NCBI GenBank assembly: GCA_963745035.1
Contig: CAVUVW010000019.1
Span: 160,001-224,000 of the forward strand
DNA: 64,000 bases
Reading direction: 5' to 3'
From: an uncultured delta proteobacterium
Lineage (GTDB): Bacteria > Desulfobacterota > Binatia > UBA9968
Shown here piece by piece: positions 40,438 through 43,239 of this stretch. Numbering within the stretch: position 1 is the stretch's first letter; each line of letters starts with the position of its first letter. The notes under the pieces were generated by a model, which worked only from the letters and a program-made list of their open reading frames with translations, was not told where the DNA came from and did not search any database. Position numbers and translations under genes: made by a program.

Positions 40438-41291
40438 TCAATACAGCACCGAAGGCAGATAGGCGCCCGCCGGTTCGTTGTAAAGACCGATCGTCATCAG
40501 GGTCAGGACCTGTGACGACGCGCAGGCGTTGGCTCAGGCACCACTGGAATAGCGCGGCATTCCGGAGCGGCACGAGAATACCCGGGCCGGCGAAAGCTGG
40601 CGCGGCGCCGATCAGCGCCATGAGGTCCCGATTGGTCTCGCCGACGGCGTGAGCAAGAAAACCCAGATCGGTCGCGTAGCCGGTCACACGGTCATTGTGT
40701 TCCACGACCGTCGCCGTGCCCAGCTTGATCGCGTCGAGGGTCTCTCCCGCGCGGTCGTGACCGTGGACGGACATGCAGACGCGATTGCACGCTTCAAGAT
40801 CTGACTCGACGGCCCGCCGCACGTGATAGCCGGCGGGCACGTTCCCGATCGCAGATCCTTGCATGCAGGCGATAGACTCGCGAGGGAGAAAACCGAGGCT
40901 TGCATAGAGCGCGAGGGAGCGGCTGTGATAGGCGGACTGTAGCAGCCGCACCCCGGCAAATTTCCGCTCGTCGGCTCGGTCGAGAACGGCCTGCATGAGG
41001 CGGCGACCCGTACCCCGATTCTGAATCTTTGGATCCACTGTAATGGGACCGACACCGGCGATCGGCGAGCGCTCGTCGAGAAAATTGCTGCCGACGACTT
41101 CTCCCCCCGCTTCGGCGACGACGCTGAAGAAGCCCGGATGTGACAGCAGCATCGTGATCAGATCCGTTGCGACTTCCACCGAAGGAAAGTCGGGCGGAAA
41201 GTTATGCTGCCGCGCGATTGCTTCAAACGCCTCATAACAGATTCTGCCGCACGCGCTGCTATCCGTTGGTCTGCCGGGTCGCAAACGTCAT
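40438..41291 (-). CDS. GNAT family N-acetyltransferase, frameshifts near 41285 and 40515
   Basis: VGPITVDPKIQNRGTGRRLM, LYASLGF; true C-terminus LMTIGLYNEPAGAYLPSVLY* in the shifted frame. Confidence 0.85.
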
Positions 41292-41329
41292 AGGGATCTG
41301 AGGATCTTGGGAATTTGCCATCGTTACCA

Positions 41330-41622
41330 TCCTGTTCCAAAATAGACAGTGCTTTGGTAAGTCGAAAAACGGCTTGCCGATAGGCTCCGTTTTCAGCAGT
41401 AAGACTATTGTAACGATTACGTAAATCAAGGAAGGGACCGAGATAATCCGCTTATCTCATGAGTGCAGATGAGTTTTAAAACTGAAACAATCTTCATCTT
41501 GGGTAATATGAGTTCAAGGAGTTTTCGGATCAGTGACCTATCTCGGATGAAAGATTCCGTTGTCAAGGCCGGTAAAAGAAGAATTCGTCTCGCGTATCGA
41601 AATTCAATAGAATATCGCCCAT
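41330..41622 (-). pseudogene. Decayed or truncated third cassette gene
   Basis: GGAGG plus ATG at 41622 just after the attC R' site; fragmented frames (MGDILLNFDTRDEFFFY; ADYLGPFLDLRNRYNSLTAENGAYRQAVFRL). Confidence 0.45.
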
Positions 41623-41647
41623 AAATCCTCCGGTGAGCGATCGTGGA

Positions 41648-41706
41648 GCCTAACGCTTGGGTGAGAAACGCGGTCCACCGCGTCCTTCTCAACCCAATAG
41701 TTAGAC
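41648..41706 (-). mobile_element. attC: Integron attC site (59-bp element)
   Basis: Minus strand: GTCTAAC-TATTG-GGTTGAGA-AGGACGCGGTGGACCGCGTT-TCTCACC-CAAGC-GTTAGGC; R'', 5-nt spacer, L'' with extra base, L', R'; upstream gene stop TAA lies inside R''. Confidence 0.92.
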
Positions 41707-42481
41707 CCCACACTGCTCAATCTGCCCATCAATACATAGGAATCCGGAGTGTCGAAAGTACAGAAGTTCATAATTCGAGGAGAATTCGTAAATCACACCG
41801 ACGAATCGAATCCCAAACCTCGCTGAATAAAAGCCGGACCGCCACTAAGACCACCAAGATCCGCGAGGTGATCTGTCCCTCTATTATCAAGCACTTGAAC
41901 CCAGTACTCACGGCCAAGTGTTTTTCAGATCGGGAATTGCCGGCTTAACCCGCTGTCACAGCTTATTTCGGAAGACAAAAATCTAGATCTGGCCGTTATT
42001 GGGCTTCGAGACGATCAAGCCAAAGAGATTACGGAAGATGGCGAGATTGGATCGTCGTTTTTCCGTCCGATTCTTGGCCCCCAAAGCCAGTGGCGAAGGG
42101 TGACTTCATCGCGTTTGGGGGTTTTCCCGGCCAATGGCGTTCACAGTTGCATTCTGATGCGCTGGAGTTTGGAACGTACGGGATCGGCGCTTCTGGCGTC
42201 ACCACGGTAAGCGACGCTTATTTCGTATCGCAGTTCGAGCGTCCCTGTCGCAGTCGTTCTCTGAAAGAAGTAATCACGTGCGAACACGTGATCGCGAGGG
42301 GCCCATTTCCAAAATCTATAAGGGAGGCCGTACCGTTGTTGATTCTTGCAGGCGCATGCGGCGACGGGAGATCGCCAAAGAGGATTGCCTTTGCAAAGCG
42401 CAATGGAAACTTGGACATCTCTCGGCCCAGAGGACCTGCGGCCAACTTCTTTGCTTCCTCAGGGGAAATAGTTGATGACAT
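41701..42481 (-). pseudogene. Trypsin-like serine protease cassette gene disrupted by an internal inversion (41913..42239)
   Basis: ITCSHV (His) on minus strand 42242-42481; DLAVI (Asp) on PLUS strand 41911-42241; GGLSGGP (Ser) on minus strand 41701-41910; both junctions in frame after re-inversion. Confidence 0.85.
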
Positions 42482-42493
42482 TCTTATTACAAG

Positions 42494-42575
42494 GTCTAAC
42501 TGGTCTAACTATTGAGTGAGCTGCCGTAGGCGACGACAAAGGCTGGTCGGCCCGATCTCCAGCGGTGGCTCCGAC
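42494..42575 (-). mobile_element. attC: Degenerate attC site with duplicated R' core
   Basis: Minus: GTCGGAGC CACCG CTGGAG...GCAGCTCACT CAATA GTTAGAC CA GTTAGAC, then ATG 12 nt later; R'' is decayed. Confidence 0.65.
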
Positions 42576-42634
42576 AGTATTGTGTCCCCGGGATTCTGCC
42601 CCAGCGCCGGAATTGCCTGCAAAAACCGCTCAGG

Positions 42635-43075
42635 CTAGTCTTTGCCCCAACCGCTGACGACCTCGGGCCGCACCCGGAACTGCACCCGTCGCTCTCCTGG
42701 GGCGCGATACGGGTATGCTTCCACTCCGAGATACTTCTTGGCGAGGCGGTTGATCCCCGCGCCGGCGCCCTGCTCTTCACTAATGACCTGGACCACGCGG
42801 CCACGCAGGCCGAGGTTGCGGTAGGGGTTTTCAGGATCAAGGACACTGAGCGCGACGGGGCTCCCGAGGCGAAGGGCGTTGGCCTTGGTCCGTCCCTCCG
42901 CTGTGTTGAGAAGGATATCCTCACCGTCCAGATCCACCCACATCGCCGATACGTGAGGTGTCCCGTCTGGCAAAACGACGCCAACGTGAACGAGCACCGG
43001 CTTCTCGATCAACTGGCGCTCCTTCGCGGTCAACTGCCGATGCGCCACCGTCATGTTTGGATGCTGCAGAGCCAT
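42635..43075 (-). CDS. PPOX class (probably F420-dependent) oxidoreductase, cassette-borne
   Basis: PDGTPHVSAMWVD, NTAEGRTKANAL, LDPENPYR, INRLAKKYLG..YP; starts 17 nt after GTTAGAC. Confidence 0.88.
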   Translation of the reverse strand: MALQHPNMTVAHRQLTAKERQLIEKPVLVHVGVVLPDGTPHVSAMWVDLDGEDILLNTAEGRTKANALRLGSPVALSVLDPENPYRNLGLRGRVVQVISEEQGAGAGINRLAKKYLGVEAYPYRAPGERRVQFRVRPEVVSGWGKD

Positions 43076-43092: not shown

Positions 43093-43239
43093 GTCTAACT
43101 ATTGAATATACAGACCCGTATATCTCGATGCCTGTTAACCTTCAAATAGTATGAGTTTTGCTATGAATTTAAGCAGCTGACAGTGATTTCTAAAGTAAAA
43201 CGAAGAAGTAATATACGGATCTGTATATTTCCGTTATAC
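43093..43239 (-). mobile_element. attC: Long attC-like site (147 bp)
   Basis: Ends GTATAAC/GTTAGAC (minus); 19-bp inverted arms AATATACAGACCCGTATAT / ATATACGGATCTGTATATT with one mismatch; AT-rich centre; spacer lengths non-canonical. Confidence 0.65.

Follow-up and report, generated by a model that had tools for sequence, protein, structure and literature searches.

Features of the locus

The window, the 64,000-nt stretch of DNA analysed here, contains a protease gene at 41701..42481 whose middle (41913-42239) is flipped in place and which, compared with intact relatives, has lost one nucleotide at each of two positions (Table 1). Six-frame reading resolves the gene into an N-terminal part on the minus strand (42481-42242), a middle on the plus strand in two frames (41911-42242) and a C-terminal part on the minus strand, again in two frames (41912-41701). 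Tblastn with the intact relative P0001 agrees with this layout, first described in the original prediction: residues 1-81 lie on the minus strand, 81-134 and 135-191 on the plus strand, and 191-226 and 227-260 on the minus strand. The inversion, 327 bp in size, sets the catalytic His, Asp and Ser on three separate pieces, and the 5' part runs into seven unrelated residues and then a stop, giving an 87-aa open reading frame (ORF) at 42481-42218.

Table 1. Coordinates of the broken protease gene, its joints and the flanking cassette features.
Feature	Position	Strand	Description and evidence
attC site of the protease cassette, 59 nt, GTCTAAC ... GTTAGGC	41648..41706	-	hairpin scan, -18.3 kcal/mol
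3' part of protease gene	41701..41912	-	residues 191-260, G-L-S213-G-G-P; tblastn
1-nt deletion (frameshift), T run in 3' part	41803..41808	-	alignment to L017 and L019; 0 gaps in X3 record 12, X5 record 17 and X6 record 26
Left joint, ACG	41910..41912		sequence; bridged by X3 contig (record 12, 41707-42047, 0 differences); X5 and X6 contigs stop 28-29 nt beyond
Inverted segment	41913..42239	+	residues 82-190, catalytic Asp106; 96% identical to L017 1057-1389, strand opposite to both flanks
1-nt deletion (frameshift), T run in inverted segment	42068..42073	+	alignment to L017; 0 gaps in X3 record 13 and X5 record 18
5' part of protease gene	42240..42481	-	residues 1-81, catalytic His68; tblastn, 80/81 identical to P0001
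Right joint, CGT	42240..42242		sequence; bridged with 0 differences by X3 record 13, X5 record 18 and X6 record 28
Upstream attC-family site, degenerate, giving the cassette's 5' core site	42503..42579	-	78-85% matches on C6, C11, C13 and C17
Upstream intact gene, F420-dependent PPOX-class oxidoreductase	42635..43075	-	TIGR03618 over cut-off; core site at 43093-43099

Piecewise alignment to an un-inverted gene from a metagenome locus (L017) bore out the prediction that the joins are in frame, with no base gained or lost: the pieces overlap at ACG (41910-12) and CG(T) (42240-42) only. The gene spans 781 nt in the window versus 783 nt in L017, where it forms one 260-aa frame, the length foreseen for the repaired gene, and one T is missing relative to L017 at each of the two expected places, near 42070 and 41805. 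The leader before the start codon is also altered, by one substitution and a 1-nt loss compared with both L017 and L019.

In a repeat scan of the window, in-register inverted repeats at the joints did not exceed 3 nt, in keeping with the predicted absence of long inverted repeats. The further claim that the joints share only ACG/CGT is true of the window itself but not of the three nearest DNA alleles (L017, L019 and L025), whose second site is CGC, leaving just CG in common. Of random position pairs in the protease gene, 1.7% show a 3-nt inverted match, and for this reason the microhomology was probably used, although the nearest alleles share CG only. A 7-nt direct repeat at 42228-42254 straddles the right joint symmetrically (5 nt, CGT, 5 nt); before the flip it would have been an offset inverted repeat (null about 0.03), out of register for priming a switch. 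A Pfam search with the five separate gene pieces gave no meaningful match, Rfam gave no match in the window, and a promoter scan returned nothing above shuffled sequences.

Intact relatives are colinear, and none of 31 loci is flipped

A search with the 5' piece recovered 18 clusters of intact, colinear proteins of 252-268 aa. The nearest, P0001 (260 aa), is 97% identical; the rebuilt 260-aa protein does have colinear homologues. An un-inverted cassette was found in the metagenome locus L017: its DNA is 93.5, 96.1 and 92.5% identical over the three parts, and the intact gene is followed by nearly the same attC site. A change of strand within the gene occurs in none of 31 homologous loci. Among relatives the codon of residue 81 varies freely, which leaves the joint trimer without conservation.

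The cassette did not turn up in 30 other genomes of the genus or, at the DNA level, in 40 relatives, both being incomplete samples. Viral contigs held no relative and plasmids held one, at 43% identity. No empty-site comparison was obtained, the two flanks falling on different contigs of relatives among the matches listed.

The gene probably lies in an integrase-less cassette cluster

The attC site, complete with core and inverse core, comes after a single gene here, and the same site stands behind the gene in L017; what adjoins the core site differs from genome to genome. Junctions with other sequences lie at 41706 (X5, X6), at 42506 (X1, X5, X6) and at 43099-43103, as cassette shuffling gives. 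A near-identical attC lies in the genome's integron array on contig C6, beside an intact integron integrase, IntI, which was found on C6 only, away from the protease cassette. Judged by these features, the protease gene is a cassette, probably in a small integrase-less cluster. The arrangement recalls the CALIN and SALIN cassettes and the attG insertions treated in the accessible part of 10.1101/2022.09.11.507474, in having an attC cassette far from the integrase gene (here on another contig). It differs from attG insertion, as far as that text describes it, in that the joints of the inversion are without a GWT core; the integrase would therefore explain the presence of the cassette and not its flip. 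Seven of the genome's own tyrosine and serine recombinases, used as queries, had no match on contig C19, the one that holds the window; the original prediction likewise saw no invertase in the window.

The scan for attC hairpins was crude, using no covariance model, and one site only passed it; the 42503..42579 site failed. Applied to homologous loci, the scan found a site after 3 of 28, versus 1 of 28 control stretches, so that for the majority of the distant relatives a cassette nature is not demonstrated.

Several minor features surround the cassette. Its 5' core site is duplicated in tandem, with a unit of 9 nt (42494-42511). An attC-like element at 43093-43239 has 19-nt inverted arms that are 95% matched (43105-43123 and 43211-43229), core-like ends and no gene inside, and did not pass the attC scan. 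After the attC of the protease cassette, about 250 nt of low GC content (41400-41647) hold no clear gene and are possibly a decayed cassette; no longer homologue was found for 41429-41650. The PPOX-class gene occurs twice in this genome, with a second copy at 76725-77218 of C12 (98%), and twice also in genome G014 (including C15), where a 98% copy was found as well; the copies are 93-98% identical, stand in different contexts, and the protein cluster has 425 members.

Inversion and frameshifts recur in contigs of other sequencing runs

Words of the stretch are contained in 20 public sequencing runs, six of which hold half or more of them. Contigs of four runs from two studies (X1, X3, X5 and X6) were compared with the window; among the other 16 runs, 14 have shares of 0.35 or less. 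The study behind X3 is possibly the one that yielded the window; X5 and X6 were produced in a different study and a different year. Records of 151 nt at depth 2 suggest that X1 and X3 are short-read runs. About half of X1 was read and its contigs leave the protease gene uncovered.

Over the gene, the contigs of X3 cover 41707-42047 and 42019-42540, those of X5 41604-41941 and 41977-42309, and those of X6 41613-41940 and 42072-42329, in every case with no other letter and no gap. The right joint is bridged without a difference in three of the four runs. The left joint is bridged in one of four under a strict 31-letter rule, X5 and X6 reaching 28-29 letters beyond it. The 41805 deletion is present in three of the four runs and the 42070 deletion in two. 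No un-inverted or alternative joint was seen in the contigs of the four runs, one of these being X1. Two Logan contigs, possibly from the same runs, carry a 141-aa ORF whose existence depends on the inverted right joint. The inversion and both frameshifts are real, since the same joints and deletions stand in contigs of other runs. A back-flipped form may be present as a rare variant, of the kind that contigs drop.

In X5 as in X6, the contig breaks off some 30 nt beyond the left joint (41940-41941). At 41127-41435 the contigs of X3, X5 and X6 share differences from the window (16 letters and two gaps in X3 record 8), while the cassette is identical; these differences may reflect a strain mosaic or an assembly patch. 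Between 30000 and 55000 of the window, apparent frameshifts interrupt many ordinary genes, much as would be seen in a long-read assembly with imperfect polishing.

The break is probably young

Compared with L017, the window has 22 silent versus 11 replacement differences (codon 191 counted twice), and it carries 3 private residues versus 0-6 in the six nearest intact proteins. As the point changes give no sign of long decay, the break is probably young. Relaxed selection was considered as a reading of the point changes and set aside for want of an excess, a lack that also tells against the pseudogene reading given below.

Each deletion takes one T out of a copy of the same 7-mer, which occurs just twice in the intact gene. 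Such a shared context, noticed after the fact, is found in 6 of 946 pairs of nucleotide runs (chance about 0.006). Across the genome this 7-mer shows no depletion (observed/expected 1.06), on which ground a restriction site was rejected as the cause of the repeated context.

Two short proteins bear on the order of events. P0026 (64 aa) equals the last 64 residues encoded in the window, including the private Leu249, yet is in frame through 41805; its start, at residue 197, uses the earliest start codon beyond the stop made by the inversion. P0025 (also 64 aa and starting at residue 197) belongs to a different allele, with Ile249, Ser248 and Gly256, and likewise reads through the 41805 place. 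In un-inverted alleles, in-frame starts are available earlier, at 141 and 160, so both proteins fit inverted sister alleles without the 41805 deletion. This is a hint, and contig edges or other breaks could produce such proteins too. Searching for truncated products that carry the inversion-made tail yielded two matches among three candidates; both lack the tail, and the protein collection searched does not contain the exact 87-aa product.

Origin of the inversion

With a probability of about 0.9, we consider the gene a fixed pseudogene. Among the readings offered by the original prediction, a one-off inactivating rearrangement is the one that the data favour: the joints and both deletions stand in the contigs, and none of the 31 loci is flipped. 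We infer that the inversion arose once and that no working protease is made from the broken gene.

The route that we favour, at close to an even chance overall, is a single template switch and return at ACG/CGT, which takes up about half of the probability given to a fixed pseudogene. The nascent strand would jump to the other template at the 3-nt match, copy the 327-nt segment backwards, and then jump back at the same match. The inversion would have preceded at least the 41805 deletion, an order that fits P0026, which is in frame through that place and starts after the inversion-made stop. Inversions by template switching, with 3-30 bp of microhomology at the junctions, are described for Escherichia coli in the part of PMC3161906 available, and a switch-and-return (four-point) model in the corresponding part of PMC5453318. 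The present case resembles the starvation-associated events of the former and the model of the latter in its lack of long repeats, its microhomology of a few bases and a length within one fork. It departs from them in the exactness of its joints, whereas two secondary E. coli inversions, almost reciprocal, are reported in the same text of PMC3161906 with small indels at both ends, and in having no hairpin that links the breakpoints. Juxtaposition of the breakpoints by a hairpin was rejected, as folding of the intact L017 strand does not predict it (summed pair probabilities of 0.0016 and 0.0001).

Against a template switch also speaks the presence of Ku in the genome, with matches over the Pfam cut-off on C20, C21 and C14, which makes end-joining available. 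Two double-strand breaks about 330 bp apart, with the piece re-ligated backwards by Ku/LigD on CG (or ACG/CGT) ends, would give joints that are exactly reciprocal and centred on the self-complementary CG, as observed. Repair of this kind could also have left the 1-nt deletions as scars, their shared 7-mer context being what a sequence-directed cut might give. However, two precise, loss-free joints are unusual for end-joining, the undepleted 7-mer gives no indication of a restriction site, and P0026 hints that deletion and inversion differ in time, which would weaken the case for a single burst of repair. We regard end-joining as less probable than the template switch, but, with Ku encoded in the genome, as its close rival.

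Serine recombinases cross over at a 2-nt core, and exact reciprocal joints on a symmetric core of that size fit their chemistry. A one-off, off-target event by a site-specific recombinase from elsewhere in the genome, either a serine recombinase at the two CG or IntI at pseudo-sites, is thus conceivable: the genome has four Resolvase-domain matches besides the intact IntI on C6, and the gene is a cassette already moved by IntI. We consider such an event doubtful, given that the two sites share no arms, that no recombinase query matched contig C19, and that neither joint has the GWT core given for non-canonical IntI sites in the accessible text of 10.1101/2022.09.11.507474.

Recurrent inversion fares worse still. 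It is very improbable that the two CG-centred sites form a recurrent crossover pair, used by an unrecognised recombination that needs no inverted repeats and, by flipping the segment in several cassette lineages, switches off a standalone defence protease that is costly to its host; under such a reading, the window would be a frozen OFF state and the two 64-aa products would be further OFF states. Recurrent flipping, if true, would point to a repeat-free inversion mechanism.

The ON/OFF switch of the original prediction, that is, a reversible or recurrent inversion by an unrecognised mechanism with the window as an OFF state later frameshifted, is a shade less probable again. In its favour, the joints restore the frame exactly, P0025 starts, in a different allele, where an inverted allele would, and the contigs of X5 and X6 end 30-31 nt away from the beginning of the left joint, close to the point at which a second form, if present, would make the assembly graph branch. 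Other observations speak against a switch. P0025 could alternatively be a contig-edge or frameshift product; X5 and X6 cross the right joint unbroken, and none of the four runs offers an un-inverted joint. As far as the contigs show, only the inverted allele exists, with both indels real, and flipping it back leaves both frameshifts, so that neither orientation encodes an intact protein. The leader before the start codon is altered as well. A switch is unlikely, since the repeat is of 3 nt and not conserved (2 nt in relatives), the seven recombinase queries found no match on the contig, 0 of 31 loci are flipped, and the frameshifts survive a back-flip.

Comparison with the intragenic invertons of Chanin et al. 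(preprint, PMC10028968) leads the same way. As in the cases described in the available portion of that preprint, the flip lies wholly inside the gene, makes a premature stop and splits the frame. The invertons described there were found by their inverted repeats, 11 nt in thiC, whereas the present gene has repeats of 3 nt at most, a single orientation in the contigs compared, no match to the recombinase queries on its contig, and two added frameshifts through which the flip becomes irreversible in effect.

An assembly or amplification chimera, the third of the original readings, has a negligible chance: the broken frames in ordinary genes of the window's assembly and the differences at 41127-41435 might suggest it, but X3 repeats both joints and both deletions letter for letter, X5 and X6 repeat the right joint, and the two Logan contigs (possibly from the same runs) carry the ORF across it.

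As a fixed pseudogene, the locus is a modest result: it documents a natural, exact, in-place intragenic inversion with 2-3 bases of microhomology. Such inversions form a class outside what repeat-based inverton finders look for, and a clean, frame-restoring inversion need not mean a switch.

The intact protease family

The more useful by-product is the family of intact relatives. Residues His68, Asp106 and Ser213 are invariant in all 23 aligned proteins, and of the 128 representatives (among 150 listed) whose sequences span both outer columns, 124 have the triad. The predicted structure (pLDDT 78.3) has trypsin-fold proteases as its top Foldseek matches (E about 1e-6, TM about 0.45-0.5). Pfam Trypsin_2 is at cut-off in one of five proteins and below it in four, and NCBIfam has no name for the family. 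Together with the attC site, triad conservation and the structural matches support the identification of the gene as a cassette-borne, trypsin-fold serine protease with a split triad. By its sequences, the family is a large, unnamed, standalone trypsin-like group, with 876 clusters at E 1e-10 or better and a median length of about 255 aa (150 representatives).

The notion of a toxic or defensive protease was part of the original prediction. It finds only indirect hints, in a weak PADLOC match to the protease part of the LmuA model (E 1e-8 for P0001) and in the neighbours at three loci. The neighbourhood sample comprised 94 ORFs flanking an intact relative in 27 loci, taken as raw counts. A strong defence match adjoins the protease in three loci, namely a type ISP/IIG restriction enzyme (L028), Drt2 (L045) and UzuA (L049); toxin-antitoxin, integrase or transposase genes are neighbours at several others. 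A defence role is thus a lead only. Within that limit, the 876 clusters, the missing NCBIfam name, the conserved triad, carriage on a cassette and some neighbours of restriction, DRT2 or Uzume type make the family a testable candidate for a one-gene anti-phage protease.

With the protease effectors of Lamassu, AVAST and Hachiman, as presented in the accessible part of PMC12799240, and with Pfam Trypsin_2, the family shares the trypsin fold, the His-Asp-Ser order and the weak LmuA match. It differs from the nuclease-protease pairs described there in being standalone, with no sensor fusion and no MBL neighbour. Identity with such a defence pair was rejected on its standalone length and on the absence of any MBL-family match among the 94 neighbouring ORFs at E 1e-6. 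In the literature covered, to which most subscription journals and supplementary files do not belong, we found no description of this protease family or of such cassette inversions.

At three loci (L032, L033 and L034), an intact relative has an antitoxin-like gene of the HTH_37 type on one side and, on the other, overlaps a downstream gene, which in L033 and L034 encodes 330 aa with weak PD-T7-1/PD-T7-5 matches. By its gene order, this arrangement is a candidate small defence operon.
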